Shown here: piece by piece, positions 4,062 through 60,460 of the stretch
Position numbering within the stretch: the first letter of the stretch is position 1
How the letters are laid out: each line of letters begins with the position of its first letter
Sequence record: NC_048205.1
From: Escherichia phage vB_Eco_mar004NP2
Strand: one strand, 5' to 3'
Length of the DNA stretch: 64,000 bases
Made by a program: the position numbers and the translations under genes
Notes under the pieces: model-generated
What the model was told of the DNA's origin: nothing
The model's database searches: none
What the model saw: the letters and a program-made list of their open reading frames with translations, nothing else

Positions 4062-4097
4062 AACCCCAGCTATTGAATAGGTAGTCTGGGGTTTTTC
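4062..4097 (+). terminator. rho-independent terminator
   Basis: hairpin AACCCCAG...CTGGGGTT followed by TTTTT. Confidence 0.6.
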
Positions 4098-34341: not shown

Positions 34342-34351
34342 AGGAGGAAAT

Positions 34352-34834
34352 ATGGCAAATGATGTATTAGTACCAGATCTTATGTCCCCTGAAGGGATGG
34401 ATGTAATTGAAGCATATTTACAGTGTGGCAGCGATGTGCCTTCTGCCGCACGTAGTCTTGGGATGTCCGAAATTGCTTTTCGAGATATTATGAATCGTAG
34501 TGAAGTTAAGAACTACTTAAATGATATTTTTATGGAGAGTGGTTTCCGTAACAGAGATCGTTTATTTGGTGTTCTGGATGAAGTTATCAAGCGTAAACTA
34601 GAGGAACTAGAAGAAACTGGCATGGGTTCTGACCAAGATATTATGGATATTCTCTGGAAAGCACATAAAATGAAAATGGAAGAAATGAAAATGATGGTAG
34701 AACTGGAGAAAGTGAAGGCAGCAGCCCGTACTCCAGCTAACCAGACCAACATCCAGAATAATATTATTGCTGGAGCTGGGGATCAAAACTACATGGACTT
34801 AATTACTTCCCTAGCTACTGGAGGTAAGAAGTAA
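34352..34834 (+). CDS. terS: terminase small subunit (putative)
   Basis: 160 aa, immediately upstream of and coupled to terminase large subunit. Confidence 0.45.
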
Positions 34835-36150: not shown

Positions 36151-36321
36151 ATAAGTATAGGATGGGATACTACTCAGTTGGTATCCCATTCCTGCATTTT
36201 AAAATCCCCTTTACAAATTCGATACGATTATGTATACTATATTCATTGATCGGGAGAACTTCTCCCATAATAGAACGTAAACAAGAAAAATTAATGCTCT
36301 ACATGGGGTGTAGGAGATTCT

Positions 36322-36995
36322 ATGGGTCGACAAAAGCTAACAATAAAAGATATAAATATTAGATTAGCTGATCGTGGAATCCAAATTGTCGGTGAGTATG
36401 TAAACCAACGTACAAAAACAGTATTTAAATGCCAGAGAGCACATGTTTGGGAAGCAACACACATTCTATACTCCATATGGGGAGAGGTTGTCCACACTGC
36501 TCCAATAATACAATATCGTTAGATGAAGTTAATAACAGAATATCTAATATAGGGTATACTCTGTTAAGCAGCTATACTAATGCTAAAACAAAACTACATC
36601 TACGCTGCAATAAGGGGCATGACTGTTTACTTACCTTAGATGGATTGACTCAAGGTAAGAGATGTCCTTATTGTTCTCTTAAGTGGGAGAATGGCGGATT
36701 CCTCTATATCATGTCCTCCTCTAGTGGTACTAAAGTAGGCATAAGCTTATACCCTGAGAAACGGCTGAATGAAGTTAAAAGAGAATCTGGATTTTCTGAC
36801 CTATACTTGTTCACCATGTATCATCTGCCAGATAGAGAGACTGCTTTAGATTTAGAAAAGGAAGTTCACAGAGAATATTATAATAAAAACTGTGGGTTTT
36901 CTAATTTTACAGGAAGCACGGAATTTTTTAATGTTGCTCCTGAGGATATAGTAATCTTTCTAAGTAGCTTTGGATTGGAGGATTATGGCCACTAA
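36322..36995 (+). pseudogene. homing-endonuclease-like gene split by a -1 frameshift at TGGGG (36478-36482)
   Basis: frame-1 ORF 36322..36522 and frame-3 ORF 36429..36995 join into a tandem repeat K..KC...H....T......G..CP.C only if ribosome slips -1 at the G-run. Confidence 0.45.
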
Positions 36996-37422
36996 TACTA
37001 AGTACAAACGTGATGCCATTTCCATAATGAGGGATGGTATAAAATCTAGGTATAGTAAGGATGGTTGCTGTGCTATATGTGGTAGTAGTGAAGACCTAGA
37101 ACTTCACCATTATCATACTATATCTCAGCTAATAAAAAAATTTGCTAAAGAACTCCAGCTGGATTTCACTGATGAGAATATCGTCCTTTCAAATAGGGAA
37201 GCATTCTACAAGAAATATGAGCATGAGTTAGTTAGGGACGTGGTAACATTGTGCCAGCACCATCACCAATTATTACATAAGGTTTACACAAAAGAACCTC
37301 CTTTATTTTCTGCTAATAAGCAAAAAGCGTGGGTTCAAAAGCAGAAAGACAAATTACAGAATCCTCAAGAAAAGACACAAGTCAAGACTGAAACAAAATC
37401 AGGATTCGCAAGGTTCTTATAA
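36970..37422 (+). CDS. HNH endonuclease
   Basis: CAICGSSEDLELHHYH ... LCQHHHQLLH motif; between terminase and portal. Confidence 0.6.
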   Translation: MDWRIMATNTKYKRDAISIMRDGIKSRYSKDGCCAICGSSEDLELHHYHTISQLIKKFAKELQLDFTDENIVLSNREAFYKKYEHELVRDVVTLCQHHHQLLHKVYTKEPPLFSANKQKAWVQKQKDKLQNPQEKTQVKTETKSGFARFL

Positions 37423-38633
37423 TGGGTTTAAAAAGCTGGATTACTGAAAAGTTAAATCCGGGTCAACGTATTATAAGAGACATGGAACCAGTTAGTCATC
37501 GCACTAACCGTAAGCCTTTTACCACTGGACAAGCCTACAGTAAAATTGAGATTCTCAATAGAACTGCTAATATGGTTATAGATAGTGCGGCGGAGTGTTC
37601 TTATACTGTCGGAGATAAATATAATATTGTTACGTACGCTAATGGCGTCAAAACAAAGACTCTAGACACTCTCTTAAATGTACGACCTAATCCATTCATG
37701 GATATAAGCACATTCCGTAGACTTGTAGTCACTGACCTACTTTTTGAAGGTTGTGCATACATCTATTGGGATGGCACATCGCTTTACCATGTCCCGGCTG
37801 CTCTTATGCAGGTCGAGGCAGATGCCAATAAGTTTATCAAAAAGTTTATATTTAATAATCAGATAGACTATCGCGTAGATGAGATTATCTTTATAAAGGA
37901 TAACAGTTACGTGTGTGGCACAAATTCTCAAATTTCTGGACAATCTCGTGTTGCTACTGTTATTGATTCTCTTGAAAAGCGTTCTAAGATGCTTAACTTT
38001 AAAGAGAAATTCCTAGATAACGGAACCGTGATTGGTCTTATTCTTGAGACGGATGAAATCCTGAACAAGAAATTGCGTGAGCGTAAACAAGAAGAATTAC
38101 AACTCGATTATAATCCTAGTACTGGTCAGTCTTCTGTCCTGATTCTAGATGGTGGTATGAAAGCTAAACCGTACTCCCAAATATCCTCTTTTAAAGATCT
38201 AGACTTTAAGGAAGACATTGAAGGATTTAATAAATCTATCTGTCTAGCCTTTGGTGTTCCGCAAGTGTTGCTTGATGGGGGTAATAATGCGAACATTCGA
38301 CCAAACATCGAACTGTTCTATTATATGACTATCATTCCTATGCTGAACAAACTGACTAGTTCTCTTACTTTCTTTTTTGGTTATAAGATCACTCCGAATA
38401 CTAAGGAAGTCGCAGCATTAACACCAGATAAAGAAGCAGAGGCTAAACATTTAACCTCATTGGTTAATAATGGTATTATAACCGGTAACGAAGCTCGTTC
38501 AGAGCTGAACCTTGAACCTTTAGATGATGAGCAGATGAATAAGATCCGTATTCCTGCTAACGTCGCTGGTTCTGCAACAGGTGTATCTGGTCAAGAAGGT
38601 GGTAGACCCAAGAGTTCCACCGAGGGAGATTAA
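37422..38633 (+). CDS. portal protein
   Basis: 403 aa, position after terminase, ATGA coupling; size matches T5 portal. Confidence 0.65.
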   Translation: MGLKSWITEKLNPGQRIIRDMEPVSHRTNRKPFTTGQAYSKIEILNRTANMVIDSAAECSYTVGDKYNIVTYANGVKTKTLDTLLNVRPNPFMDISTFRRLVVTDLLFEGCAYIYWDGTSLYHVPAALMQVEADANKFIKKFIFNNQIDYRVDEIIFIKDNSYVCGTNSQISGQSRVATVIDSLEKRSKMLNFKEKFLDNGTVIGLILETDEILNKKLRERKQEELQLDYNPSTGQSSVLILDGGMKAKPYSQISSFKDLDFKEDIEGFNKSICLAFGVPQVLLDGGNNANIRPNIELFYYMTIIPMLNKLTSSLTFFFGYKITPNTKEVAALTPDKEAEAKHLTSLVNNGIITGNEARSELNLEPLDDEQMNKIRIPANVAGSATGVSGQEGGRPKSSTEGD

Positions 38634-38635
38634 GA

Positions 38636-39121
38636 ATGATTGATTATAGTGGTCTGAGGACCATTTTTGGTGAAAAACTGCCAGAATCTCATATCTTCTT
38701 TGCTACGGTTGCTGCGCATAAATATGTTCCTAGCTATGCTTTTCTGCGTAGAGAACTAGGGCTTTCATCTGCGCATACTAATCGTAAAGTATGGAAGAAA
38801 TTTGTAGAGGCTTATGGTAAAGCAATTCCTCCGGCTCCACCATTAACTCTTTCTAAAGATTTAACTGCGAGCATGTCAGTTGAAGAGGGAGCAGCATTAA
38901 CACTTTCTGTTACTGCAACTGGGGGTACTGGTCCATATACTTATGCATGGACTAAAGATGGTTCTCCTATTCCTGGTGCTTCAGGAGCTACCTATACTAA
39001 GCCTACAGCAGCAGCTGAGGATGCCGGCTCTTATAAAGTAACTGTAACAGATAGTAAGCAAGTAAGTAAGGATTCTACTGCATGTGCTGTAACAGTTAAT
39101 CCTACTGTTCCTGGAGGCTAA
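38636..39121 (+). CDS. capsid decoration protein with Ig-like domain (pb10-like)
   Basis: C-terminal Ig-like segment LTLSVTATGGTGPYTYAWTKDGSPIPGA...YKVTVTD. Confidence 0.5.
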   Translation: MIDYSGLRTIFGEKLPESHIFFATVAAHKYVPSYAFLRRELGLSSAHTNRKVWKKFVEAYGKAIPPAPPLTLSKDLTASMSVEEGAALTLSVTATGGTGPYTYAWTKDGSPIPGASGATYTKPTAAAEDAGSYKVTVTDSKQVSKDSTACAVTVNPTVPGG

Positions 39122-39124
39122 TAA

Positions 39125-39757
39125 ATGACACAAGCTGCTATTGACTATAACAAGTTAAAATCAGCACCGGTTCATTTAGATGCTTATATTAAATCTATTG
39201 ATAGCGAATCCAAAGAGGGTGTTGTAAAAATACGTGGATTCGCTAATACAATTAGTAAAGATCGCGCTGGTGATGTAATTCCTGCTTCTGCATGGAAAAC
39301 ATCTAATGCACTTACTAACTACATGAAAAACCCGATTATTCTTTTCGGACACGATCATCGTCGTCCAATCGGTAAGTGTATTGATCTTAACCCCACTGAA
39401 ATGGGTCTCGAAATCGAATGCGAGATCTATGAAAGTTCTGACCCGGCTATCTTTTCACTAATTAAAAACGGTGTACTGAAAACTTTTAGTATCGGATTCC
39501 GCTGCCTAGATGCAGAGTGGGATGAAGCTACTGATATATTTATTATTAAAGATTTAGAACTATACGAAGTTTCGGTAGTTTCTGTACCTTGTAATCAGGA
39601 CTCAACATTCAATCTCGCTAAGAGCATGAATGGTCATGATTATACTGAATGGCGTAAATCTTTTACTGCAATAAGTTCTAAAGCTGTCCCAGCTCAAGAA
39701 CGTAATCTTTCTGAACTAGAAAAACTTGCGATAGCTTTAGGCTACGTTAAAGAATAA
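39125..39757 (+). CDS. prohead protease
   Basis: 210 aa between portal/decoration and major capsid genes. Confidence 0.55.
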   Translation: MTQAAIDYNKLKSAPVHLDAYIKSIDSESKEGVVKIRGFANTISKDRAGDVIPASAWKTSNALTNYMKNPIILFGHDHRRPIGKCIDLNPTEMGLEIECEIYESSDPAIFSLIKNGVLKTFSIGFRCLDAEWDEATDIFIIKDLELYEVSVVSVPCNQDSTFNLAKSMNGHDYTEWRKSFTAISSKAVPAQERNLSELEKLAIALGYVKE

Positions 39758-39774
39758 CGGAGAATTATTTAAAA

Positions 39775-41151
39775 ATGACTATTGATATTAATAAGCTGAA
39801 AGAAGAACTTGGTCTGGGTGATCTGGCTAAATCTCTGGAAGGTCTGACCGCTGCTCAGAAAGCCCAGGAAGCTGAACGTATGCGTAAAGAGCAGGAAGAA
39901 AAAGAACTGGCTCGTATGAATGACCTGGTTTCTAAAGCAGTTGGCGAAGATCGTCAGAAACTGGAACAAGCTCTGGAACTGGTTAAGTCCCTGGATGAAA
40001 AATCTAAGAAGAGCGCAGAACTGTTCGCACAGACTGTAGAAAAGCAGCAGGAAACCATTGTTGGTCTTCAGGATGAAATTAAATCTCTGCTAGCAGCTCG
40101 TGAAGGTCGTTCCTTCGTCGGTGATAGCGTAGCTAAAGCACTGTATGGTACTCAGGAAGCTTTTGAAGATGAAGTTGAAAAACTAGTTCTCCTGTCTTAT
40201 ATGATGGAGAAGGACGTATTTGAAACTGAACATGGTAAAGCCCACGTTAAAGCTGTTAATACTTCTTCCTCTGTACAGGTTTCCAGTGAAAACTACGAAA
40301 CTATTTTCTCTACCCGTATCCTTCGTGACCTGCAGAAAGAGTTAGTAGTTGGTGCACTGTTCGATGAACTGCCAATGTCCAGCAAAATTCTTACTATGCT
40401 GGTTGAGCCTGAAGCTGGAAAAGCTACTTGGGTAGATGCTGGTTCCTACGGTACTGATGCTACTGTTGGTAACGAAGTTAAAGGTACTCTGACTGAAATT
40501 AGTTTTAAAACCTACAAACTGGCTGCTAAGTCCTTCATTACTGATGAAACTGAAGAAGATGCAATCTTCTCCCTGCTGCCGCTGCTGCGTAAGCGTCTGA
40601 TTGAAGCACATGCTGTTTCTATCGAAGAAGCTTTTATGACTGGTGATGGTACTGGTAAGCCGAAAGGTCTGTTGAAACTGGCTGAAGATGATGGTGCTAA
40701 AGTTACTACTGAAGCTAAAGCTGATGGTACTGTTCTGGTAACTGCTAAAACTATCTCTAAACTGCGTCGTAAACTGGGTCGTCATGGTCTGAAACTGAGC
40801 AAACTGGTACTGATAGTATCTATGGATGCTTACTACGATCTGCTGGAAGACGAAGAATGGCAGGATGTTGCACAGGTTGGTAACGATGCTGTTAAACTGC
40901 AAGGTCAGGTTGGTCGTATCTATGGTCTTCCGGTTGTAGTTTCTGAATACTTCCCAGCTAAAGCAGCAGATAAAGAGTTCGCAGTTATTGTTTATAAAGA
41001 TAACTTCGTAATGCCGCGTCAGCGTGCTGTTACTGTTGAACGTGAGCGCCAAGCTGGTAAACAGCGTGATGCGTACTACGTTACTCAGCGTGTTAACCTG
41101 CAACGTTACTTCGAAAACGGCGTTGTATCTGGTGCTTACGCTGCATCTTAA
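39775..41151 (+). CDS. major capsid protein precursor (pb8-like)
   Basis: 458 aa as in T5; coiled-coil delta-domain-like N-terminus then capsid fold region; strongly biased codon usage. Confidence 0.7.
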   Translation: MTIDINKLKEELGLGDLAKSLEGLTAAQKAQEAERMRKEQEEKELARMNDLVSKAVGEDRQKLEQALELVKSLDEKSKKSAELFAQTVEKQQETIVGLQDEIKSLLAAREGRSFVGDSVAKALYGTQEAFEDEVEKLVLLSYMMEKDVFETEHGKAHVKAVNTSSSVQVSSENYETIFSTRILRDLQKELVVGALFDELPMSSKILTMLVEPEAGKATWVDAGSYGTDATVGNEVKGTLTEISFKTYKLAAKSFITDETEEDAIFSLLPLLRKRLIEAHAVSIEEAFMTGDGTGKPKGLLKLAEDDGAKVTTEAKADGTVLVTAKTISKLRRKLGRHGLKLSKLVLIVSMDAYYDLLEDEEWQDVAQVGNDAVKLQGQVGRIYGLPVVVSEYFPAKAADKEFAVIVYKDNFVMPRQRAVTVERERQAGKQRDAYYVTQRVNLQRYFENGVVSGAYAAS

Positions 41152-41172
41152 TACAGGCTTTTCAGCCGATAA

Positions 41173-41200
41173 GGAGAGCTTCGGCTCTCCTTTTTTATTG
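41173..41200 (+). terminator. rho-independent terminator after capsid gene
   Basis: hairpin GGAGAGC-TTCG-GCTCTCC plus TTTTTT. Confidence 0.7.
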
Positions 41201-41210
41201 GGAAAAATAA

Positions 41211-41723
41211 ATGCAAATCATCACAGCCGAAGATTATAGATTATATGGTGGTTTAAAACGACCTGAATTAGAATCTGGTGTAGAAATGATGATTACTGCT
41301 GCCAATGCGCTGATCACAAGCCTTCTAGGCATGGATGACGCTGATGCGGTAGACCAGTTAATCAATACAAAACCTACACGTAGGAAATATTTTCTGAGCT
41401 CACCATCTGCTACCTCCGTAACTAAAGTGACGATTAACGATAATGAGATTGACCCAGAGCAGTATAGGCTATACTCTGACGGTATTATCCTTCTCAAATT
41501 TAATCCTCCAGAAGGTTATATGGATGTAGCATATACACAAGGTGGATTCAATCCAATACCTGAAGATCTCAAACTTGCAGCATGTATGTTAGTAGATCAT
41601 TGGCACAAACAAGATTATCGCCAAGCTAAAACAATTGGTGGTGAAACAGTAACCTTCAATAGCACTAAGTCTGGTATTCCAGAGCATATTCGTACTATTA
41701 TTGAAGTATATAGGAGAGTATAA
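41211..41723 (+). CDS. head completion / connector protein (putative)
   Basis: 170 aa, directly downstream of capsid gene. Confidence 0.4.
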   Translation: MQIITAEDYRLYGGLKRPELESGVEMMITAANALITSLLGMDDADAVDQLINTKPTRRKYFLSSPSATSVTKVTINDNEIDPEQYRLYSDGIILLKFNPPEGYMDVAYTQGGFNPIPEDLKLAACMLVDHWHKQDYRQAKTIGGETVTFNSTKSGIPEHIRTIIEVYRRV

Positions 41724-42490
41724 TGTCTCTTTCCGATCTAGCTAAACAAATTATTAAAGAGCAGCTAGATACTGCAGGACGATCTGAAAATAATAAGAAT
41801 ACTGTTGTATACTCTGTTGAAACAGGGCTAAAAGATCCTACCAGAGATGGTACTGTTGCTCAAGTATCTTTTAAGTTTTCAAAGCCTGTATCCCAAGATC
41901 TTCTTGATGTTAGAACAGCCTCTATACTAAAAGCTGTATCCTCTAGTTTAGATCTTTCGGGAGATTTAGGTGCTTTAGAGAATTTAATACAAGCAACCGC
42001 TGGTAAAAAATCTGCTGTAGGTAAAAAACGTTCTACAGGCAGAGTACAGGTAAACTTTGGGGATCCTAGAGACGTAGAGGATGGATACTCAGGTGCAATA
42101 ACAGGTGCTTCCGGACGTTTTGTATCAAATAGCAATATGAAGGTTATATTAGAGATAGTTGCTAAAGAGTACTTAATAAAGGATATGAAAAAGACAGGAG
42201 CGCCATTAAAATTTAGAACCGGTCGCTTTGCAAATTCTCTGAAAATTAAGGATGTTATACTTAGAGATGCAGAGACTAGTAAAGGCTCTCCTGAATTGAA
42301 CGTAACATATAATTATATGACTCGTCCATATTCTGTATTCAACCCTGCAGTATCTACGTATAGAAGATTATCTCTAAGACCTTATCCTGGCGCTAGAAAT
42401 CCACAAAAACTTATTGGTGAGGCTATAGCAAAAGCTGCAAGAGACCTGATTCACTCTAGATATAAAATCAAGGTTAATCAAGGAACCTAA
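41723..42490 (+). CDS. structural protein (putative head-tail joining), 255 aa
   Basis: synteny. Confidence 0.4.
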   Translation: MSLSDLAKQIIKEQLDTAGRSENNKNTVVYSVETGLKDPTRDGTVAQVSFKFSKPVSQDLLDVRTASILKAVSSSLDLSGDLGALENLIQATAGKKSAVGKKRSTGRVQVNFGDPRDVEDGYSGAITGASGRFVSNSNMKVILEIVAKEYLIKDMKKTGAPLKFRTGRFANSLKIKDVILRDAETSKGSPELNVTYNYMTRPYSVFNPAVSTYRRLSLRPYPGARNPQKLIGEAIAKAARDLIHSRYKIKVNQGT

Positions 42491-42493
42491 TAA

Positions 42494-42979
42494 ATGGACC
42501 ATAGAACAAGTATTGCACAAGCTCTGGTTGACCGTATATCTAAACAGTTGGACGGTTCTCAACCTGACGAATATTTTAATAACCTATATGGAAACGTTTC
42601 TCGTCAAACTTATAAATTTGAGGAAATACGAGAGTTTCCTTATGTGGCAGTTCATATCGGAACTGAAACTGGGCAGTATCTTCCTTCAGGCCAACAGTGG
42701 ATGTTTTTAGAACTTCCAATCCTGGTGTATGATAAAGAGAAAACAGACATTCAAGAGCAACTTGAAAAACTCGTAGCGGATATAAAAACCGTTATTGACA
42801 CAGGTGGAAATTTAGAATATACTGTTAGTAAACCTAATGGATCGACCTTCCCATGTGAGGCAACTGATATGATCATTACATCAGTTAGTACAGATGAGGG
42901 TCTACTGGCCCCATATGGTTTAGCAGAAATAAATGTAACAGTGAGGTATCAGCCTCCACGTAGGTCACTTCGCAGATAA
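42494..42979 (+). CDS. tail completion protein (putative), 161 aa
   Basis: synteny. Confidence 0.4.
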   Translation: MDHRTSIAQALVDRISKQLDGSQPDEYFNNLYGNVSRQTYKFEEIREFPYVAVHIGTETGQYLPSGQQWMFLELPILVYDKEKTDIQEQLEKLVADIKTVIDTGGNLEYTVSKPNGSTFPCEATDMIITSVSTDEGLLAPYGLAEINVTVRYQPPRRSLRR

Positions 42980-43005
42980 GTTACAGATTAGGAGAAAATA
43001 ATTAA

Positions 43006-44415
43006 ATGTCTTTACAACTATTACGTAATACTCGAATCTTCGTGTCTACGGTTAAGACTGGTCATAATAAGACCAACACGCAAGAGATTCTAGTTCAGGA
43101 TGATATTTCTTGGGGTCAGGACAGTAACTCAACAGATATTACTGTTAATGAAGCTGGTCCGCGTCCAACTCGTGGTTCTAAACGTTTTAATGACTCTTTA
43201 AACGCGGCTGAGTGGAGTTTCTCTACTTATATCCTGCCATATAAAGATAAAACTACTAACAAACAGATTGTCCCTGACTATATGTTATGGCATGCTCTTT
43301 CTAGCGGTAAAGCTCTTAACCTAGAAGGTGATACAGGAGCACATAATAACGAAACCAATTTTATGGTTAACTTTAAAGATAACGCGTACCACGAACTGGC
43401 AATGCTGCATATCTACATCCTGACTGACAAAGCATGGAGTTACATCGACTCTTGCCAGATCAACCAGGCAGAAGTTAACGTTGATATTGAGGATATTGGT
43501 CGTGTAACTTGGTCAGGTAATGGTAACCAGCTTATTCCTTTGGATGAGCAACCATTTGATCCTGATACTGTAGGTATTGATGATGAAACTTATATGACTA
43601 TTCAGAGTTCTTATATCAAGAACAAATTGACTATCCTGAAAATTAAGGATATGGATTCTGATAAGGCATATGATATCCCTATTACTGGAGGTACTTTCAC
43701 CATTAATAACAATATTACGTACCTAACCCCCAATATTATGTCCCGTGTAAATATTCCGATCGGTTCATTTACTGGTGCGTTTGAACTAACTGGTTCTCTG
43801 ACAGCTTACCTTAATGATAAAGCTCTAGGATCTATGGAGCTATATAAAGATCTAATTAAAACTCTTAAGGTAGTTAACAAGTTTGAAGTTGCACTTATCC
43901 TTGGTGGTGAATATGATGATGAACGTCCGGCAGCTGTGTTAGTTGCTAAACAGGCGCATGTTAATATTCCTACTATTGAGACTGATGATGTACTTGGTAC
44001 TTCAGTAGAGTTTAAAGCTATCCCTACAGATCTGGATACTGGTGATGAAGGTTATCTTGGTTTTTCTAACAAGTATACTAAAACCACTGTGGCTAATCTG
44101 ATTGCTACAGGAGATGGCGCTAAAACTCCACCAAAACTAGTTGAATCAATCACAGTTAAATCAGCTGGTAATGTCACTTCAGTGGAGAATAGCAATACTC
44201 TACAGATGTCTGTTGAAGTAACTCCGCCAGATGCTACTAATAGTGCTGTAACTTGGTCTATTTCTAGCGGTGATGCAGCTACAATTGATCCAGAATCTGG
44301 TCTATTAACTGCGGATACTACTAAGACTGGAGAAGTTACTGTGAAAGCTGTAGCTAAAGACGGTTCTGGTGTAGAAGGTACTAAGAGCATTACAGTTACT
44401 GGTTCTGGTGGCTAA
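43006..44415 (+). CDS. tail tube protein (pb6-like) with C-terminal Ig-like domain
   Basis: 469 aa; C-terminal Ig-like segment NTLQMSVEVTPPDATNSAVTWSISSGDAATI...VTVKAVAKDGSG. Confidence 0.6.
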   Translation: MSLQLLRNTRIFVSTVKTGHNKTNTQEILVQDDISWGQDSNSTDITVNEAGPRPTRGSKRFNDSLNAAEWSFSTYILPYKDKTTNKQIVPDYMLWHALSSGKALNLEGDTGAHNNETNFMVNFKDNAYHELAMLHIYILTDKAWSYIDSCQINQAEVNVDIEDIGRVTWSGNGNQLIPLDEQPFDPDTVGIDDETYMTIQSSYIKNKLTILKIKDMDSDKAYDIPITGGTFTINNNITYLTPNIMSRVNIPIGSFTGAFELTGSLTAYLNDKALGSMELYKDLIKTLKVVNKFEVALILGGEYDDERPAAVLVAKQAHVNIPTIETDDVLGTSVEFKAIPTDLDTGDEGYLGFSNKYTKTTVANLIATGDGAKTPPKLVESITVKSAGNVTSVENSNTLQMSVEVTPPDATNSAVTWSISSGDAATIDPESGLLTADTTKTGEVTVKAVAKDGSGVEGTKSITVTGSGG

Positions 44416-44419
44416 TTAA

Positions 44420-45322
44420 ATGTACTACTCTCTAATGAGAGAGTCAAAAGTTATAGTTGAGTATGATGGTAGGGCATTTCATTTTGATGCCCTATCAAAC
44501 TATGATATACAGACTTCCTACGAGGAATTCAAGACTCTTCGTAGGACTGTTCATCGTAGAACTAACTATGCAGACTCTATTATAAATGCTCAAACCCCCT
44601 CTTCTATCTCTCTAGCAGTAAATTTCAGTAATACTCTTACGGAGGCTAACTTCTTTGAATGGTTAGGTTTTGATAGAAAAGGTAATACTTTCTTACTCCC
44701 ACTATATAGTAATAATATTGAACCTATTATGTTTAATATCTATATAGTAAATAAAGATAATAACTGTGTATATTTTGAAAACTGCTATGTATCTACAGTA
44801 GATTTTTCTTTAGATAAGAACATACCAATTCTTAATGTTGGTATTGAGTCTGGGAAATTCTCAGAAGTATCTACCTATAGAGAAGCAGCTTCTATTATAC
44901 AGGGTGAAGTAATGTCTTACAGCCCAGTAATAGCTTCTACTAATGGCAGCATCTTACCCGGTCTTATTTCTGCCTCTTTATCTTTCCAGCAGCAGTGCTC
45001 TTGGAGAGAGGATAAGAGTGTTTTTGATATAAATAAAATTTATAATAATAAAAGAGCCTATGTAACTGAAATGAATGCTTCGGCAACCCTTTCTTTGTAT
45101 TACTTAAAACGTTTTGCAGGGGATATGGTTTATAATATAGAACCGGAGACAGATGTACCTTTAAATATAAGAAATAATAATATTTCTATAGATTTTCCTT
45201 CAGCACGTATTACAAAACGCCTAGATTTCTCAGATGTGTATAGAGTTGAGTGGGATATTATACCTACTGCTTCCTCAGACCCAGTGAGAATAGATTTCTT
45301 TGGAGAAATTAAAAATGATTAA
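44420..45322 (+). CDS. tail-associated structural protein, 300 aa
   Basis: synteny between tube and chaperone genes. Confidence 0.4.
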   Translation: MYYSLMRESKVIVEYDGRAFHFDALSNYDIQTSYEEFKTLRRTVHRRTNYADSIINAQTPSSISLAVNFSNTLTEANFFEWLGFDRKGNTFLLPLYSNNIEPIMFNIYIVNKDNNCVYFENCYVSTVDFSLDKNIPILNVGIESGKFSEVSTYREAASIIQGEVMSYSPVIASTNGSILPGLISASLSFQQQCSWREDKSVFDINKIYNNKRAYVTEMNASATLSLYYLKRFAGDMVYNIEPETDVPLNIRNNNISIDFPSARITKRLDFSDVYRVEWDIIPTASSDPVRIDFFGEIKND

Positions 45323-45719
45323 TTTAAAAGATATTACTCTTGATACTCGTACTATTACTCTTTCCTACCCAGGTATGCCGAACTTTAAACTAGAACTTAA
45401 CTATATGTCTCGTGCTACCTCTAAACGTGTTATTTCTTCTGCTAAACGCGATGAATGGGTTAATGGTACTTTGATTCAGGTACAGGATGATGATAAGTTC
45501 ATTGAAGCCTTCGTTGACGCAGCTATTAAAGGTTGGACCGGTTTGACTGTAGGTGACGTTGAAAAACTGATGCTGATTGAAACAGATGCTGATCCTGCTA
45601 CTGAAGTTCCTTTTAGCCGCGATAATGCTGTAATGCTCATGCAGAACTCTGCTGCGTTTGACTCTTGGATCAACCAGACAGTGTTCCACTTAGACACTTT
45701 TCGTAGCCCAAAAGCGTAA
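45300..45719 (+). CDS. tail assembly chaperone (putative)
   Basis: small acidic protein upstream of tape measure gene. Confidence 0.4.
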   Translation: MEKLKMINLKDITLDTRTITLSYPGMPNFKLELNYMSRATSKRVISSAKRDEWVNGTLIQVQDDDKFIEAFVDAAIKGWTGLTVGDVEKLMLIETDADPATEVPFSRDNAVMLMQNSAAFDSWINQTVFHLDTFRSPKA

Positions 45720-45780
45720 AGAACTCCTAGATGCTGTTGCTGATTTTGCAGATAAATGTATTAAAAGCTCAGCATCTAAA

Positions 45781-46149
45781 ATGACCAAACAACAATATTT
45801 AATACTTTGTGAGTCAATGGGTATAGAACCTGATCCTAAGGCTATGCCTGTTGAGCTTGAAGATTTTCCACCTATTGTAGCTATTAGTATGAATATTTAT
45901 AATAGTCTAGTTGACTGTTTCATACCTGGTGACTTTCCTATCTTTATAGGTAAAGATAAAGCTGCTCTAGGTGTTTTATTTGATATTTATGGGATTACCG
46001 ATCCTATAGAAAAAGAATTTGTTCTACACATTATCAATATATTTGATGCTAAAGCTGTAGACGCTGCACGTAAACGTGCCGAGAAGCATAAACCGCAAAA
46101 CGGAAGAATACCTAACGTTAAGCCACATGCTAGATCTCGGGCGCGATAA
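45781..46149 (+). CDS. tail assembly protein (putative), 122 aa
   Basis: position immediately upstream of tape measure gene. Confidence 0.4.
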   Translation: MTKQQYLILCESMGIEPDPKAMPVELEDFPPIVAISMNIYNSLVDCFIPGDFPIFIGKDKAALGVLFDIYGITDPIEKEFVLHIINIFDAKAVDAARKRAEKHKPQNGRIPNVKPHARSRAR

Positions 46150-46181
46150 AAGTTTCCTCCAATGGGCGTTCCACGATGAGG

Positions 46182-46215
46182 CTTGGCTCTGGGTGATTTG
46201 CCCAGAGCCTTTTTT
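46182..46215 (+). terminator. rho-independent terminator-like hairpin before tape measure gene
   Basis: GGCTCTGGG-TGATTTG-CCCAGAGCC plus TTTTTT. Confidence 0.6.
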
Positions 46216-46232
46216 ATTGGGAAAAATAAAAT

Positions 46233-49200
46233 ATGACTGATAAGCTAATACGAGAATTACTGATAGACGTTAAACAGAAGGGGGCAACTCGTACTGCAAA
46301 GTCTATTGAAAACGTATCTGATGCATTAGAGAATGCTGCTGCGGCTTCTGAGCTAACGAATGAACAGTTAGGTAAAATGCCCAAAACTCTATACTCCATT
46401 GAGAGAGCAGCAGACAGGGCAGCAAAAAGTCTTACTAAAATGCAAGCTAGTAGGGGTATGGCTGGTATCACTAAATCCATTGATGGTATTGGTGATAAGC
46501 TAGATTACCTGGCTATCCAACTTATTGAAGTAACAGATAAGCTAGAAATTGGATTCGACGGAGTTTCTAGATCTGTTAAAACAATGGGCAATGATGTTGC
46601 AGCTGCAACAGAGAAAGTTCAAGATAGATTGTATGACACCAATAGAGTTTTAGGCGGTACAACTAGAGGTTTTAATGACACTGCAGGTGCCGCTGGTAGA
46701 GCTTCTAGAGCTATTGGTAATACTTCTGGTTCGGCACGTGGGGCTACCCGTGATTTTGCAGCAATGGCTAAGATCGGTGGTAGTTTACCTATTATGTATG
46801 CAGCTCTTGCTTCCAACATCTTCGTTTTGCAATCTGCATTCGAACAACTTAAGTTAGGTGATCAGCTAAATCGTCTAGAAAAATTTGGTGTTATAGTAGG
46901 TACTCAGACAGGTACTCCTGTTCAGTCTCTTGCTAGATCACTACAAGAAGCTGCCGGATATGCTATCTCCTTTGAAGAAGCAATGAGACAAGCATCCTCT
47001 GCTTCTGCGTACGGATTTGATGCTGAACAACTTAATAAATTTGGTCTAGTAGCTCGTCGTGCTGCTGCTGTTCTTGGCGTTGATATGACTGATGCACTTA
47101 ACCGTGTAATTAAGGGTGTATCTAAACAAGAAATCGAACTTCTGGATGAACTTGGTGTTACTATTCGTCTTAATGACGCATATGCTGATTACGTTAAACA
47201 GTTGAATGCTGCAAACACAGGTATAACATATAATATTAATAGCCTTACTACCTTCCAGAAACAGCAAGCGTATGCTAATGCTGTTATAGCAGAGTCTACT
47301 AAACGTTTTGGTTACTTAGATGAAGTTTTACGTGCTACTCCGTGGGAGCAGTTTGCCGCTAATGCTGATGCCGCACTGAGAAAGATTCAGCAGGCTGCTG
47401 CTAAGTATTTAGGGCCGGTAATTGATGCTATCAACACAGTATTTTATACTTCTCAGGCTTCTATATCTGCTGAAGCAGCTAGAGCTCAAGAAAAAACCAA
47501 TAGACAGATAGATCCTACCAACGTTGGTGCTGTTGCTTTAAGTTTGGCCGCTTCTGAAGAAGGCTATAATAAAGCTCTAGATATGTACAAGGAATCTCTT
47601 GATAAGCGTAATAAGCTAAAATCCGAATTCGATAAACGAATGGAGCAAGCGGATTTCTATACAAGATTAGCCATACGTCAAGTTGGTGAAGGTATTCCTG
47701 TTGGTCTTGCTGCTGCTGGTGCTTCCGAAGCTAATAAAAAGTTCGTAGAAGAAACTGCGGCTATGGGTCTACAAGTAACCAGACTAGGTAAGGAAGTAGA
47801 AGATTCTACTGAAAACCTTAATGCTTGGAAGTCAGCCTATCAAGCTGCGGGTGCTGCTGCTGCAAAAGCTAATCCAGAGTTTCAGAAACAGATTAATCTA
47901 CAGAGAGATACTACTGATCCTGGTGCTGTATATGACTTTAACTCCACAGTATTAAAAGGACTAACTGAACAACAGAAAGCATATAATCAAACTAAGAAAA
48001 CTGCTAGTGACTTAGCTAATGATATACAGAACGTTGCTCAGAATACAGATACTGCTGCTAAAACTAGTGCTACTTTAGCAGATGCTATAAAAAACATAGA
48101 ATCTCTATCCTTAGGCACTGGTAAGAGTGCCGATGAGTATGTTAAAAACCTTAACCTGGGCTATAACACACTGTCTGAAATGAAAACTGCATCTCAGGCT
48201 CTATCTGAGTATGTTAAACTAACTGGTAATGAAACTAAAAATCAGTTAGCAGTTCAACAGAAAATAGCTGATGTGTACAACCAAACTAAGGATAAGGAAA
48301 AGGCTCAGGAAGCGGGTAGACGTTTAGAGTTGCAACAGTTAGAAGAGCAAGAAGCTGCTTTACGCCGTGTTCTTCAAACAAACCAGGGAAATAAAGCTGT
48401 TGAGAAAGAAATTGAAAAAATTCAGCTGGAGAAACTTAGACTTACCAATCAGGGTATGGAAGCCCAGAAGAAGGTCAAGGATTACACAGATAAAATTCTT
48501 GGTGTAGATCGTGAGATAGCTCTCCTGAATGACCGTACTATGACTACTACTCAATATAGATTAGCTCAGCTAAAACTAGAACTAACTGTAGAGAAAGAGA
48601 AGTACGAATGGTATACAAAACAAGCGGACAAACAGAAAGAGGCGGAACAGTCTAGACGTGCGCAAGCACAAATAAGCCGGGAGTTATGGGAAGCGGAGAA
48701 GCAGGCAACTGCCTCACATGTATCAGCTCTCATGGATGCACTAGAAGTCAGCCAAACACAAAGAAATGTTACTGGCCAAGCTCAGATTCTTACGGAAAGA
48801 TTATCTGTTTTGCAAGAACAGCTAGAACTATCTAAGGGCAATACCGAAGAAGAGATCAAGTATCGTAATGAGATCTATAAAACTGCTGCTGCTCTAGAGC
48901 AACTTAGAAAGCAAAGAGAAGGCCAAATGCAGCAACAGGTAGGATCTTCTGTGGGTGCTGTGTACACTCCTACAACTGGACTATCTGGGGAAGACAAAGA
49001 TTTTGCAGATATGCAAAATAGAATGGCTTCTTATGATCAGGCAATCTCTAAGCTATCTGAATTAAATTCTGAAGCAACCGCTGTGGCTCAAAGTATGGGT
49101 AACTTAACTAACGCTATGATTCAGTTCTCTCAGGGATCCTTAGATACTACCTCCTTGATTGCTTCTGGCATGCAAACTGTATCTTCTATGATTCAGTATA

Positions 49201-49913
49201 GTACTAGTCAACAGGTTAGTGCTATTGATGCAGCTATCGCAGCGGAGCAGAAACGTGATGGTAAATCAGAAGCATCTAAAGCTAAATTGAAGAAGCTAGA
49301 AGCTGAAAAGCTGAAGATTCAACAAGACGCAGCTAAGAAGCAGATTATCATCCAAACTGCGGTAGCAGTAATGCAAGCGGCAACAGCTGTACCGTACCCG
49401 TTCTCTATTCCTTTGATGGTGGCGGCAGGTTTAGCAGGTGCCTTAGCTCTTGCTCAAGCATCTTCTGCTTCTGGTATGTCAAGTATTGCTGATTCTGGAG
49501 CGGATACAACTAGTTACTTAACCTTAGGAGAGCGTCAGAAGAATATAGATGTGTCTATGTCTGCTAATGCTGGTGAATTATCTTATATCCGTGGTGATAA
49601 AGGCATAGGCGGTGCTAACTCTTTCGTTCCTCGTGCTGAGGGTGGTAATATGTACCCTGGGGTTAGCTATCAAATGGGTGAGCATGGTACAGAAGTAGTT
49701 ACCCCTATGGTTCCTATGAAAGCTACGCCTAATGATGAGCTAAAAACCTCATCTAACTCAACTTCAGGAAGACCTATCATCCTGAATATTAGTGCTATGG
49801 ATGCTGCAAGTTTTAGAGAGTTTGCTTCTAGTAATAGTAGTGCTCTAAGAGACGCAGTGGAATTAGCTCTGAATGAGAACGGTGCTAGTCTGAAAACATT
49901 AGGAAATTCTTAA
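46233..49913 (+). CDS. tail tape measure protein (pb2-like), 1226 aa
   Basis: very long coiled-coil, Ala/Gln-rich protein with hydrophobic segment near C-terminus. Confidence 0.8.
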   Translation: MTDKLIRELLIDVKQKGATRTAKSIENVSDALENAAAASELTNEQLGKMPKTLYSIERAADRAAKSLTKMQASRGMAGITKSIDGIGDKLDYLAIQLIEVTDKLEIGFDGVSRSVKTMGNDVAAATEKVQDRLYDTNRVLGGTTRGFNDTAGAAGRASRAIGNTSGSARGATRDFAAMAKIGGSLPIMYAALASNIFVLQSAFEQLKLGDQLNRLEKFGVIVGTQTGTPVQSLARSLQEAAGYAISFEEAMRQASSASAYGFDAEQLNKFGLVARRAAAVLGVDMTDALNRVIKGVSKQEIELLDELGVTIRLNDAYADYVKQLNAANTGITYNINSLTTFQKQQAYANAVIAESTKRFGYLDEVLRATPWEQFAANADAALRKIQQAAAKYLGPVIDAINTVFYTSQASISAEAARAQEKTNRQIDPTNVGAVALSLAASEEGYNKALDMYKESLDKRNKLKSEFDKRMEQADFYTRLAIRQVGEGIPVGLAAAGASEANKKFVEETAAMGLQVTRLGKEVEDSTENLNAWKSAYQAAGAAAAKANPEFQKQINLQRDTTDPGAVYDFNSTVLKGLTEQQKAYNQTKKTASDLANDIQNVAQNTDTAAKTSATLADAIKNIESLSLGTGKSADEYVKNLNLGYNTLSEMKTASQALSEYVKLTGNETKNQLAVQQKIADVYNQTKDKEKAQEAGRRLELQQLEEQEAALRRVLQTNQGNKAVEKEIEKIQLEKLRLTNQGMEAQKKVKDYTDKILGVDREIALLNDRTMTTTQYRLAQLKLELTVEKEKYEWYTKQADKQKEAEQSRRAQAQISRELWEAEKQATASHVSALMDALEVSQTQRNVTGQAQILTERLSVLQEQLELSKGNTEEEIKYRNEIYKTAAALEQLRKQREGQMQQQVGSSVGAVYTPTTGLSGEDKDFADMQNRMASYDQAISKLSELNSEATAVAQSMGNLTNAMIQFSQGSLDTTSLIASGMQTVSSMIQYSTSQQVSAIDAAIAAEQKRDGKSEASKAKLKKLEAEKLKIQQDAAKKQIIIQTAVAVMQAATAVPYPFSIPLMVAAGLAGALALAQASSASGMSSIADSGADTTSYLTLGERQKNIDVSMSANAGELSYIRGDKGIGGANSFVPRAEGGNMYPGVSYQMGEHGTEVVTPMVPMKATPNDELKTSSNSTSGRPIILNISAMDAASFREFASSNSSALRDAVELALNENGASLKTLGNS

Positions 49914-49917
49914 AACT

Positions 49918-49947
49918 GGAGGAGGACTTTGAGTCCTCCTTTTCTTT
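49918..49947 (+). terminator. rho-independent terminator
   Basis: GGAGGACT-TTG-AGTCCTCC plus TTTTCTTT. Confidence 0.7.
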
Positions 49948-49956
49948 ATGGAAAAA

Positions 49957-49985
49957 TAAAAATTTCTTGATAAAATTTTCTAATA
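49957..49985 (+). promoter_or_regulatory. sigma70-like promoter (-35 TTGATA, 17 bp, -10 TATAAT) upstream of baseplate genes
   Basis: hexamers and spacing; followed by AAAGAGGAG RBS. Confidence 0.5.
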
Positions 49986-50022
49986 CTATTATAATATTGT
50001 TATTAAAGAGGAGAAATTAACT

Positions 50023-50637
50023 ATGAGATTACCAGACCCATACACGAATCCAGAACTTTCAGGCTTAGGATTCGAAAGTGTTAACCTGATTGATAATGAC
50101 CCAGTAATTCGTGATGAGTTACCAAATGGTAAAGTTAACGAAGTTAAGGTATCTGCTCAATACTGGGGTATAAATATTTCTTATCCAGAATTATTTCCAG
50201 ATGAATATAGTGTTCTAGATGCATTTATTCTAGAATACAAAAGGACTGGTGGTTATATAGATGTTATATTACCACAATACGAAGCTTTTAGAGTTAGAGG
50301 TAATACTAGCCTAGTAAATATACCTGCTGGACAGAAGGGTTCTAATATAACTATGGATACAAAAGGACTTCTCACAGGTATTCCAAAACCAGGGGATCTA
50401 TTTAAGCTATCTAACCATCCAAAAGTATATAAAATAACATCATTCAATAAATCAGGCAATACGTGGTCTATAAACTTATACCCTGATTTATTTATAACTA
50501 CTACTGGGGCTGAGAAACCAGTGTTTAACGGAATACTATTTAGAACAAAACTCATGAATGGTGATGCTTTCGGATCTACATTAAATAATAACGGAACATA
50601 TTCCGGCATCTCATTAAATTTACGGGAAAGTTTATGA
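50023..50637 (+). CDS. distal tail protein (Dit, pb9-like)
   Basis: 204 aa as in T5 pb9; follows tape measure gene. Confidence 0.6.
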   Translation: MRLPDPYTNPELSGLGFESVNLIDNDPVIRDELPNGKVNEVKVSAQYWGINISYPELFPDEYSVLDAFILEYKRTGGYIDVILPQYEAFRVRGNTSLVNIPAGQKGSNITMDTKGLLTGIPKPGDLFKLSNHPKVYKITSFNKSGNTWSINLYPDLFITTTGAEKPVFNGILFRTKLMNGDAFGSTLNNNGTYSGISLNLRESL

Positions 50638-60416: not shown

Positions 60417-60460
60417 AAAACCCCAGTGGACAAAATCCACTGGGGTTTATTATTTATTTT
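60417..60460. terminator. bidirectional terminator between convergent fibre and dut genes
   Basis: hairpin AAACCCCAGTGGA-CAAAA-TCCACTGGGGTTT, T-rich on + and A-rich upstream. Confidence 0.7.

Follow-up and report, generated by a model that had tools for sequence, protein, structure and literature searches.

A near-identical element repeated at three late-operon junctions of a T5-like phage is probably a composite of standard expression signals

Results

A near-identical element recurs behind three late-operon hairpins

The window, a 64,000-nt stretch of Escherichia phage vB_Eco_mar004NP2 (NC_048205.1), comes from a T5-like phage, and Salmonella phage SPLA5b is 100% identical to it across the tested stretch. 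Three junctions in its late region are the subject of this analysis (Table 1): site 1 lies between the genes for the major capsid protein and the head-tail adaptor, site 2 between those for the second tail chaperone and the tape-measure protein, and site 3 between the tape-measure gene and that of the distal tail protein. The start codons at sites 1 and 2 both open real genes, encoding an adaptor of 170 aa and a tape-measure protein of 1226 aa, with homologues family-wide.

Table 1. Features at the three junctions and the late promoters (coordinates are those of the window)
Feature	Position	Strand	Basis or detail
Major capsid protein gene, 5' of site 1	39775-41151	+	ORF; 'major head protein' in the 100%-identical OR413584.1
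Small hairpin GGCTTTTCAGCC, 5' of the site-1 terminator	41154-41165	+	Sequence; cross-genus comparison
Site-1 terminator hairpin, AAGGAGAGC-TTCG-GCTCTCCTT	41171-41192	+	Terminator scan; -16 to -19 kcal/mol
Site-1 U-tract TTTTTTATT, 5' half of the motif	41191-41199	+	Sequence
Site-1 predicted weak RBS of the head-tail adaptor gene: GGGA (41200-41203), A-rich 7-nt spacer, ATG (41211)	41200-41213	+	
Promoter TTGACA-17-TATACT within the tail-terminator gene, T5 P-J5 homologue	42795-42823	+	Promoter scan, 11/12
Non-coding block TTTCCTCCAATGGGCGTTCCACGATGAGGCTT, 32 nt, between the chaperone stop and the site-2 hairpin	46153-46184	+	Conserved in five genera
Site-2 terminator hairpin, GGCTCTGGG-TGATTTG-CCCAGAGCC	46185-46209	+	Terminator scan; -22 kcal/mol
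Site-2 U-tract TTTTTTATT	46210-46218	+	Sequence
Site-2 predicted weak RBS: GGGA (46219-46222), A-rich 10-nt spacer, ATG (46233) of the tape-measure gene	46219-46235	+	
Site-3 terminator hairpin, 3' of the tape-measure gene	49918-49942	+	Terminator scan; -17 kcal/mol
Site-3 end of the T-tract and A-rich stretch, with GGAAAAATAAA at 49950-49960	49943-49966	+	UP-element position, about -59 to -36
Sigma-70 promoter TTGATA-17-TATAAT, T5 P-G25 homologue	49967-49995	+	Promoter scan, 11/12; T5 annotation
Start of the distal tail protein gene: strong SD GAGGAG, spacer, ATG (50023)	50008-50025	+	Anti-SD duplex -9.1 kcal/mol
Motif segments outside GGGA: TTATT, AAAAATAAA			
A-rich sequence AAAAATAA, part of the adaptor and tape-measure leaders			

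An earlier note, made from the sequence alone, had described a near-identical element occurring three times here, each time directly after a strong hairpin, and on both counts our analysis agrees with it. Sites 1 and 2 share an identical 17-mer, TTATTGGGAAAAATAAA (41195-41211 and 46214-46230), for which 2 matches with at most two mismatches were found against 0.09 expected; the full identity between them extends to the 23-mer CCTTTTTTATTGGGAAAAATAAA (41189-41211 and 46208-46230). The site-3 copy (CCTTTTCTTTATGGAAAAATAAA, 49938-49960) agrees with this 23-mer at 19 of 23 positions; the span given for it previously, 49934-49948, lies about 10 nt too far 5' and covers a hairpin arm and the T-tract without the GGAAAAATAAA core. 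That core, an exact 11-mer, is present three times in the window against 0.11 expected, a count reached in 0 of 100 shuffles. The genome-wide motif search that the note had proposed finds no further copy on either strand of the reconstructed 107.5-kb genome. Each copy lies directly 3' of one of the three strong late-operon terminator hairpins, whose folding energies range from about -16 to -22 kcal/mol. The element was also correctly said to abut the next ATG in two cases: at site 1 the ATG overlaps the end of the motif, and at site 2 it comes 2 nt past it. At site 3 the motif is separated from the next start codon by 62 nt, in which a promoter lies.

The 5' half of the motif is a predicted terminator U-tract

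The TTTT(T/C)T(T)ATT portion of all three copies forms the U-tract of a predicted intrinsic terminator: all three stems have 9-11 pairs and run into TTTTTTATT or TTTTCTTTAT. The hairpins start 20, 36 and 5 nt past the stop codons of the capsid, chaperone and tape-measure genes, respectively, and are co-directional with them. In good agreement with this assignment, the T5 reference (NC_005859) has a rho-independent terminator annotated behind each of the three corresponding genes, D20-21 (capsid), T5.142 (chaperone) and D18-19 (tape measure), and the hairpins and T-tracts there are nearly the same as ours; the site-2 terminator is also annotated in the PR1 and Slocum records. The T5 annotation ends at the T-tract and does not mention the shared sequence downstream. 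We rejected a bidirectional terminator, as the minus-strand sequence beyond the hairpins is of the TTATCGGC type and has no T-run.

The three hairpins differ in how they are conserved. At site 2, RNAalifold across seven genera finds four pairs with compensatory double changes. The core of the site-1 hairpin, GGAGAGCTTCGGCTCTCC, is identical in T5, PR1, RP7, KPN4 and Slocum; this hairpin is sequence-invariant among enterobacterial genera, without compensatory changes, which is unusual for a plain terminator. Distant lineages carry other hairpin sequences at the places homologous to sites 1 and 3. The small hairpin 5' of the site-1 terminator keeps its GGC/GCC stem in other genera, while its loops differ.

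The block between the chaperone stop and the site-2 hairpin, whose relatives were gathered with a DNA pattern of the conserved block, is partly kept in Vibrio phage phi 3 as well. We rejected the possibility that it is coding, either by stop read-through or as a frameshift extension of the chaperone: on inspection of the sequences its frame relative to the stop differs by genus and in-frame stops are present, and these inconsistent reading frames indicate that the block is non-coding. RNAalifold across the seven genera supports no conserved helix in it. A known RNA family was likewise rejected, as the Rfam search of 39500-50500 returned only sub-threshold chance matches (E > 1).

Sites 1 and 2 continue into a predicted weak ribosome-binding site

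Judged from its sequence, the 3' half of the motif would form a weak translation-initiation region at both of these sites, made up of an SD-like GGGA and an A-rich spacer. The absence of a canonical Shine-Dalgarno sequence, remarked upon in the earlier note, holds for both sites: GGGA is placed 7 and 10 nt from the ATG, and its duplex with the anti-SD (-4.2 kcal/mol, with one of the pairs a G-U wobble) is among the weakest of 31 genes, the two sites ranking 27th and 28th. By comparison, the GAGGAG of the distal tail protein gene is a strong SD. The opening energies of the initiation regions, 6.0 and 8.2 kcal/mol for sites 1 and 2, are mid-range; those of the capsid and major tail genes are 2.9 and 4.2 kcal/mol. 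Since SD strength is low-ranking and accessibility mid-range, both sites look like weak starts rather than enhancers. The distance from the end of the hairpin to the ATG, 18-23 nt, is unusually tight.

Comparison with relatives is consistent with this assignment. Other Demerecviridae carry GGAGG, AGGAG or GAGG where GGGA stands here; in Vibrio phage phi 3 this G-rich element is GGAGG or, at site 2, AGGAG. The annotation of Serratia phage Slocum gives the RBS as GGA at site 1 and GGGT at site 2. The distance from the motif to the ATG at site 2 shifts by 0-3 nt among close relatives, which is compatible with an RBS that tolerates changes in length.

At site 3 the A-rich half lies in the UP-element position of a predicted late promoter

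The site-3 promoter has an annotated orthologue. From the GGAAAAATAAA core through the TTGATA-17-TATAAT hexamers, the SD and the ATG, the sequence is nearly identical to that of T5 P-G25, with no substantial difference between the two; the T5 feature 'promoter P-G 25' begins right at the third terminator, and the A-rich stretch of site 3 falls within the homologous part. The second promoter in Table 1 corresponds to T5 P-J5, which is annotated inside the homologous gene T5.146 and feeds the major tail gene. PG25 and PJ5 both gave late-class primer-extension products in T5-infected cells, and the late promoters known from T5 are of the ordinary sigma-70 type (PMC7472727). At site 3 the UP-element position is filled by the A/T-rich TCTTTATGGAAAAATAAAAATT, from about -59 to -38. 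On the strength of this position, and of the UP element that the promoter alignment in PMC7472727 marks according to its Figure S5 legend, we infer that the A-rich half of site 3 is a putative UP-element part of the P-G25-homologous late promoter.

Across the family the order at site 3 is the same: terminator, A/T-rich stretch, -35 element, 17 bp, TATAAT and strong SD. The GGAAAAATAAA core itself is found at this site only in T5-like (Tequintavirus-type) sequences, other genera having different A-rich, AATAAAAAAAT-type runs in its place.

Our promoter scan found no -35/-10 hexamers at usable spacing within ~60 nt of sites 1 and 2 on either strand, and we therefore rejected a promoter at both. 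When the site-3 spacing is applied to site 1, it yields TCATCA...TTATAT, with 3/6 matches to each consensus hexamer; applied to site 2 it yields CTGATA...CTGATA, with a 1/6 match at the -10 position. The missing hexamers leave a common late-promoter element unsupported.

The arrangement is conserved in the family and recurs in unrelated phages

For sites 1 and 2 we compared seven genomes, each representing a distinct lineage of the Demerecviridae, and all seven have the hairpin, T5-6 followed by AT(T/A), a G-rich element, an A-rich spacer and the ATG. In a wider site-1 set of 80 loci from IMG/VR, whose capsid proteins are as little as 37% identical, the T-tract is followed by GGAG, GAGG, GGAGG or AAGGAG, 5-9 nt 5' of the adaptor ATG. 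Conservation of the intergenic region at site 1 is on a par with that of codon positions 1 and 2 (mean 0.985, 78% of columns invariant; compare codon third positions at 0.89/29% and 0.79/11%). The hairpin and motif of this region form a cassette that is identical at 47/47 nt in Providencia phage PR1, the adaptor protein of which is only ~29% identical. Site 2 has been disrupted in T5, where the endonuclease gene T5.141 separates the terminator from the tape-measure gene and there is no GGGAAAAATAAA half.

The syntax is not confined to this family. Among the 92 non-T5 IMG/VR matches to TTTTTTATTGGNNAAAATNNATG, 80 have a stable hairpin on the 5' side and 83 lead into an ORF of 60 codons or more; the genes behind these matches, all from unrelated phages, encode terminase, capsid, adaptor, tail and tape-measure proteins. 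The order of hairpin, TTTTTTATTGG..AAAAT..ATG and long ORF recurs in many unrelated phage contigs, in which a degenerate version of the motif is common. Exclusivity to T5-like phages was accordingly rejected: the 21-mer is found 35 times in diverse bacterial genomes, about one third of these after hairpins. Common descent of the cassette together with the tape-measure gene was rejected for one unrelated contig (L012), as the tape-measure proteins have no detectable homology.

Discussion

The repeated element is, in our assessment, likely to be a junction of standard expression signals in a T5-like late operon, a composite and not one new element. The single element of the earlier note comes apart by site, and a third component, the terminator U-tract, is present at all three. 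Its two proposals, a late promoter or an enhancer of initiation, fare differently by site: the promoter part stands at site 3 only, while at sites 1 and 2 an initiation region is predicted, one that looks like a weak start rather than an enhancer.

The composite suggests how these junctions might work. With terminators placed after the capsid, second tail-chaperone and tape-measure genes, and with the RBS of the next gene directly abutting the U-tract at sites 1 and 2, RBS-bearing mRNA would come only from RNA polymerases that read through the terminator. Read-through combined with a weak RBS would hold the head-tail adaptor and the tape-measure protein low: at site 1 a scarce adaptor would follow the abundant capsid gene, and at site 2 a scarce tape-measure protein would stand at the end of a transcription unit that opens with the abundant tail-tube gene. 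At site 3 the strong sigma-70 P-G25 homologue would restart transcription for the distal tail genes. This resembles operons in which attenuating terminators set the ratios of products; here one terminator follows the high-copy capsid gene and another precedes the low-copy tape-measure gene, no promoter separates either from the next gene, and partial read-through, a low rate of translation and a stoichiometric purpose would be the corresponding functions. No usable T5-like transcript map turned up in the literature searched.

Leaders rich in U or in A and U are known as enhancers that depend on ribosomal protein S1, and the leaders at sites 1 and 2 are like S1-assisted weak-SD leaders in having an SD-like core of 3-4 nt, with a U-rich tract immediately 5' of it and 7-10 nt of A-rich spacer behind it. 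They differ in that the U-rich tract doubles as a terminator tail, and S1 dependence is putative. A dedicated binding site or translational enhancer going beyond a weak RBS is nevertheless unlikely. It could take the form of a U-tract and A-rich spacer that recruit S1 on read-through mRNA and so offset the weak SD, or of a phage or host factor that binds TTATTGGGAAAAATAAA and couples read-through with initiation. The exact identity of sites 1 and 2 over 23 nt, the deep conservation of TTTTTTATTGG at both across genera, the codon-like constancy of the intergenic region and the unchanged site-1 cassette in T5-like phages and PR1 would all fit such a signal, as would the known S1-dependent action of such leaders. 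Yet the spacing to the site-2 ATG drifts among close relatives, the G-rich core is freely swapped for canonical SDs in other lineages, T5 lost the 3' half of site 2 upon insertion of the endonuclease gene, and SD strength and accessibility indicate a weak start. The same syntax stands before many unrelated genes in unrelated phages, and this recurrence argues against a T5-specific factor.

An RNA switch, in which AUUGG(GA) pairs with CCGAU (site 1) or UCCACGAUGAG (site 2) 5' of the hairpin, or the U-tract pairs with the A-rich spacer, and the pairing on read-through mRNA would hide the SD or AUG until opened, we judge very unlikely. RNAfold centroid structures do show extended helices at sites 1 and 2 of this phage, and the block that supplies the site-2 pairing partner is strongly conserved; however, RNAalifold across seven genera supports the terminator hairpin only, inspection shows that KPN4, RP7 and Vibrio phi 3 lack an intact extended pairing, and the co-occurrence of GCCGA and UUGG at site 1 is inconsistent. 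The extended helix, as an SD-sequestering switch, was rejected as not conserved; the mini-hairpin of U-tract and A-tract was rejected because it folds at only -1.5 kcal/mol and is matched by 17 of 200 shuffles. It is hardly credible, finally, that all three sites are late-promoter elements recognised by the host's RNA polymerase, perhaps in a form altered by T5 late proteins, and that mRNAs of the adaptor, tape-measure and distal tail genes begin there. All three copies do lie in the late region, and the A-rich half of site 3 is placed like the UP element of a mapped late promoter, but sites 1 and 2 have no -35/-10 pair in range on either strand, the T5 record annotates terminators only at these two sites, and the known late promoters are of the ordinary sigma-70 kind. 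Moreover, their start codons overlap the motif or follow within 2 nt, so that a transcript started downstream would lack the start of the gene.

If the composite reading is right, the outcome is a clean negative, in that a statistically striking repeat resolves into known signal types; the terminators and P-G25 are already annotated in phage T5. What emerges is a design rule apparently common to many phages, by which the RBS of a low-copy structural gene is set against the terminator U-tract of a high-copy gene. Such a rule would be useful for late-operon annotation and for expression ratios in engineered phages.

Some observations sit uneasily with a composite. The identity exceeds what generic signals need: sites 1 and 2 agree at 23/23 nt, and the 11-mer is exact at site 3 despite the different signal there. 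The 47-nt site-1 cassette is invariant in PR1 despite the diverged adaptor. Separately, the pairing of AUUGG(GA) with sequence 5' of the hairpins that RNAfold predicts in this phage could add a regulatory layer, one that is not kept elsewhere. We think it improbable that the invariant cassette and the 32-nt site-2 block reflect sequence-specific recognition by a phage or host factor; such a factor might act in late antitermination, in mRNA processing or stabilisation, or as an S1-type enhancer re-using the U-tract, and would then tune read-through and translation of low-copy virion proteins. As residual oddities, the site-1 cassette and the block before the tape-measure terminator are cheap leads for the mapping of T5 late transcripts.

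A repeated element at three late terminators

The late region of the phage carries a near-identical element in triplicate, which the earlier note, made from the sequence alone, had proposed to be either a late-promoter element or a translation-initiation enhancer. The repetition is real: the window has exactly three copies of the core GGAAAAATAAA (0.11 expected), a count reached in 0 of 100 shuffles, and a genome-wide search of both strands found no further copy in a 107.5-kb genome rebuilt from the window and the remainder of the SPLA5b record. Sites 1 and 2 (~41195 and ~46214) have the exact 17-mer TTATTGGGAAAAATAAA in common (2 matches in the window at ≤2 mismatches against 0.09 expected), and their full shared identity is the 23-mer CCTTTTTTATTGGGAAAAATAAA. 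The match at site 3 (49938-49960), which agrees with the 23-mer at 19 of 23 positions, lies about 10 nt downstream of where it had been placed; the rebuilt genome holds no other place within 4 mismatches of the 23-mer. As had been claimed, all three copies directly follow a strong hairpin (-16 to -22 kcal/mol). Other strong hairpins with a T-run in the window (e.g. at 4092, 6642, 10039, 12545, 17698 and 60446) are followed by different sequence past the T-run.

Over the segment 40500-47000 the phage matches Salmonella phage SPLA5b (OR413584.1, Demerecviridae, Tequintavirus) at 100% identity and hundreds of T5-like phages at 84-96%. Genes around the three sites were placed using the OR413584.1 annotation and the ORF list.

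Features around the three copies of the repeated element (window coordinates)
Feature	Position	Relation to the sites	Remarks
Major capsid gene	39775-41151	5' neighbour of site 1	
Head-tail adaptor gene	41211-41723	3' neighbour of site 1	
TTGACA-17-TATACT	42795	nearest internal promoter to sites 1 and 2	in homologue of T5 gene carrying annotated late promoter P-J5
Second tail-assembly-chaperone gene	45781-46149	5' neighbour of site 2	
Tape-measure gene	46233-49913	between site 2 and site 3	
TTGATA-17-TATAAT	49967-49995	begins six bases past GGAAAAATAAA at site 3	11/12, top promoter match in its 19-kb scan region
GAGGAG, strong Shine-Dalgarno (SD)	between promoter and ATG 50023		anti-SD -9.1 kcal/mol
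Distal tail protein gene	50023-50637	3' neighbour of site 3	

The repeated element is a junction of known signals, largely annotated in T5 already. Its 5' half (TTTTTTATT at sites 1 and 2, TTTTCTTTAT at site 3) consists of the T-runs that make the three hairpins intrinsic terminators. Putative rho-independent terminators are annotated at all three homologous places in the T5 reference genome record, as are terminators at the homologues of all three sites in Serratia phage Slocum and of sites 2 and 3 in Providencia phage PR1. Pairing of the site-2 stem is kept across genera via compensatory changes, with both sides altered in 4 pairs, and the site-1 and site-3 hairpins of more distant relatives have an entirely different sequence at the same position.

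Sites 1 and 2 lead into probable weak ribosome-binding sites

At sites 1 and 2 the 3' half of the element is most probably a weak ribosome-binding site. Comparing the window with T5, Klebsiella phage KPN4, Slocum, PR1, Proteus phage RP7 and Vibrio phage phi 3, we found the same order at both sites in every genome: hairpin, T5-6, AT(T/A), a G-rich element, a 6-14 nt A-rich spacer and ATG. Enterobacterial genera have GGG or GG as the G-rich element, and Vibrio phage phi 3 has GGAGG at site 1 (TTTTTTATTGGAGGTAATAAAatg) and AGGAG at site 2. In the Slocum annotation, GGA and GGGT at these very places are labelled ribosome-binding sites, directly adjoining the terminators. The succession of capsid gene, terminator and adaptor gene is retained in 80 IMG/VR loci gathered via the capsid protein (down to 37% identity), where GGAG, GAGG, GGAGG, AAGGAG, GGGG, AGGA or GGAA follows the T-tract, 5-9 nt 5' of the adaptor ATG.

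A translation-initiation role thus fits these two sites, though probably not as an enhancer. In line with the reported lack of a canonical SD, there is only GGGA, whose anti-SD duplex, at -4.2 kcal/mol, places the two genes 27th and 28th among 31. The cost of opening the -15 to +12 region is in the middle of the range, with 6.0 and 8.2 kcal/mol at these sites compared with 2.9 for the capsid gene and 4.2 for the major tail gene. Both look like weak starts, not enhanced ones. Among close relatives the distance from the site-2 motif to the ATG varies (nothing, AC, AT or TT past AAATAAA) and the A-run shows one-base changes; such variation would be tolerable for a ribosome-binding site and would not be expected of a precisely positioned binding site.

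The promoter reading does not hold for sites 1 and 2: a consensus scan detected no -35/-10 pair near either on either strand, and alignment on GGAAAAATAAA with the site-3 spacing yields TCATCA...TTATAT at site 1 and CTGATA...CTGATA at site 2. Moreover, the start codons overlap the motif or come ≤2 nt after it, so a transcript starting downstream would lose the start of the gene.

Site 3 leads into the homologue of a T5 late promoter

It is at site 3 that the late-promoter idea stands, each of the two original proposals thus fitting a different site and the interpretation being partly right. Here the terminator is followed by the homologue of the known T5 late promoter P-G25. T5 is nearly identical at this place, and since the 'promoter P-G 25' feature in its record starts at the terminator's last base, the GGAAAAATAAA stretch falls inside it. 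Strong sigma-70 promoters upstream of T5 late genes are described by Klimuk et al. 2020 (PMC7472727), who report primer-extension products of late kinetics for PG25 and PJ5 and mark a UP element in the supplementary promoter alignment. Given the -35 hexamer at 49967, positions 49943-49964 correspond to about -59 to -38, the UP-element position. The layout of terminator, A/T-rich run, -35, 17 bp, TATAAT and strong SD recurs in 43/43 relatives examined, but the A-rich run differs outside the T5-like group (e.g. ATAAATAAAAAAATTATG, TATAATAAAAAATTTTC); GGAAAAATAAA at site 3 is therefore a lineage-specific version of the A-rich promoter-upstream region.

Discussion

The succession of terminator tail, GG-type ribosome site and A-rich spacer appears to be general rather than a regulatory word peculiar to T5, because the same syntax is found in unrelated phages and bacterial genomes. 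An IMG/VR scan with TTTTTTATTGGNNAAAATNNATG gave at least 120 loci; the pattern itself imposes a T-run and an ATG, so the hairpin and ORF fractions are informative and the match count is not. Among the matches listed, 92 lie outside the earlier T5-like loci (one T5-family site-1 cassette, L285, included); a stable hairpin stands directly 5' in 80 of the 92, and 83 open an ORF of ≥60 codons. The unrelated-phage genes behind the pattern, again among the matches listed, encode a P2-type tail protein, large terminase, major head protein, head-tail adaptor, tail assembly and tape-measure proteins. Bacterial genomes of very different kinds contain 35 copies of the exact 21-mer, about one in three preceded by a hairpin.

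Some of the sequence identity goes beyond generic constraints: the 23/23 match between sites 1 and 2, and the presence of the exact 11-mer at site 3, the A-rich part there belonging to another signal. This extra identity may reflect an old duplication of the terminator cassette or some shared preference, which may be for easily melted DNA just past the release point. The site-1 cassette of hairpin, U-tract, weak ribosome site and ATG (GGATAAGGAGAGCTTCGGCTCTCCTTTTTTATTGGGAAAAATAAATG, 41166-41213) is identical at 47/47 nt in PR1 (L126 10895-10943), with adaptor proteins about 29% identical; its UUCG-looped hairpin is invariant in five enterobacterial Demerecviridae lineages without compensatory change, in contrast to the covarying site-2 hairpin. 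Past the chaperone stop codon and 5' of the site-2 terminator, a 32-nt block (TTTCCTCCAATGGGCGTTCCACGATGAGGCTT, 46153-46184) containing an anti-SD-like CCUCC is kept in Tequintavirus, Sugarlandvirus, Slocum, Priunavirus and Novosibvirus, with partial conservation in Vibrio phage phi 3, even though chaperone protein identity is only 32-49%. Comparison across genera rejected a coding role for the block and revealed no conserved helix; it matches no Rfam family. Because of the extra motif identity, the invariant site-1 cassette and this conserved block, we allow a slim chance that some sequence-specific factor acts at these sites.

The analysis establishes the anatomy, along with its conservation and the homology to annotated features. 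From these we infer that three leaky terminators punctuate the late operon. Past the capsid gene and before the tape-measure gene, only read-through transcripts would carry the next gene, whose weak ribosome site is packed against the U-tract, the hairpin ending 18-23 nt 5' of the ATG; both the need for read-through and the weak site would lower output. Past the tape-measure gene, the terminator is followed at once by P-G25, which would restore transcription of the distal tail genes. In the T5 virion, adaptor and tape-measure proteins are of low copy number compared with capsid and tail-tube proteins, which the lowered output would fit. Across 28 distinct T5-like sequences, mean column conservation in the site-1 intergenic region is 0.985 (78% of columns invariant), similar to the 0.97 (78%) at capsid codon positions 1 and 2 and far above third positions, with 0.89 (29%) in the capsid gene and 0.79 (11%) in the adaptor gene; the whole intergenic region is under purifying selection.

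Additional observations

In an unrelated 42.6-kb viral contig of 44% G+C (L012, 9486-9545, minus strand; also L067), CTTTTTTATTGGGAAAAATAAATGAC stands after a different hairpin and shares 26 identical nt with the site-2 variant present in some T5-like phages. This copy again precedes a tape-measure gene (phrog_9483), with no detectable homology to the T5-type tape-measure; the match could be due to chance, convergence or cassette exchange.

Some relatives have extra genes inserted at the terminator junctions. In T5 (L131 15997-16772) the site-2 terminator is separated from the tape-measure gene by T5.141, annotated as an endonuclease gene, and in several other phages (L096, L102, L118, L154, L156 and L159) extra sequence with a new ORF start follows the capsid stop codon, ahead of the site-1 terminator.

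Within 45756-45783, the second chaperone gene begins at ATG 45781, 61 nt past the first and in the +1 frame; its SD is almost absent (-0.1 kcal/mol) and its start poorly accessible (11.3 kcal/mol to open). Independent initiation and recoding, as in other phage chaperone pairs, are both candidates for its expression.

Over the compared region 34351-39775, gene starts from 36985 onward match OR413584.1, and those of TerS, TerL, the endonuclease and further 5' genes are 1 nt off. As start codons are displaced only upstream of ~36.3 kb, the window and that record seem to differ by a single-nucleotide indel at around 36.3-37.0 kb.

Past the P-G25 homologue, the distal tail protein gene has a leader and start (ATTAAAGAGGAGAAATTAACTATGAGA, 50002-50028) that appear to match exactly the 'RBSII' ribosome-binding region in expression vectors of the pQE/pDS type. 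Finally, where plus-strand late genes meet minus-strand genes, a 13-14-bp hairpin (60418-60448) set between an A-rich and a T-rich run has the appearance of a bidirectional terminator; on the minus strand its tail, TTTTCTTTTATTG, is similar to the U-tracts at sites 1 to 3 but has no GGAAAAATAAA part.
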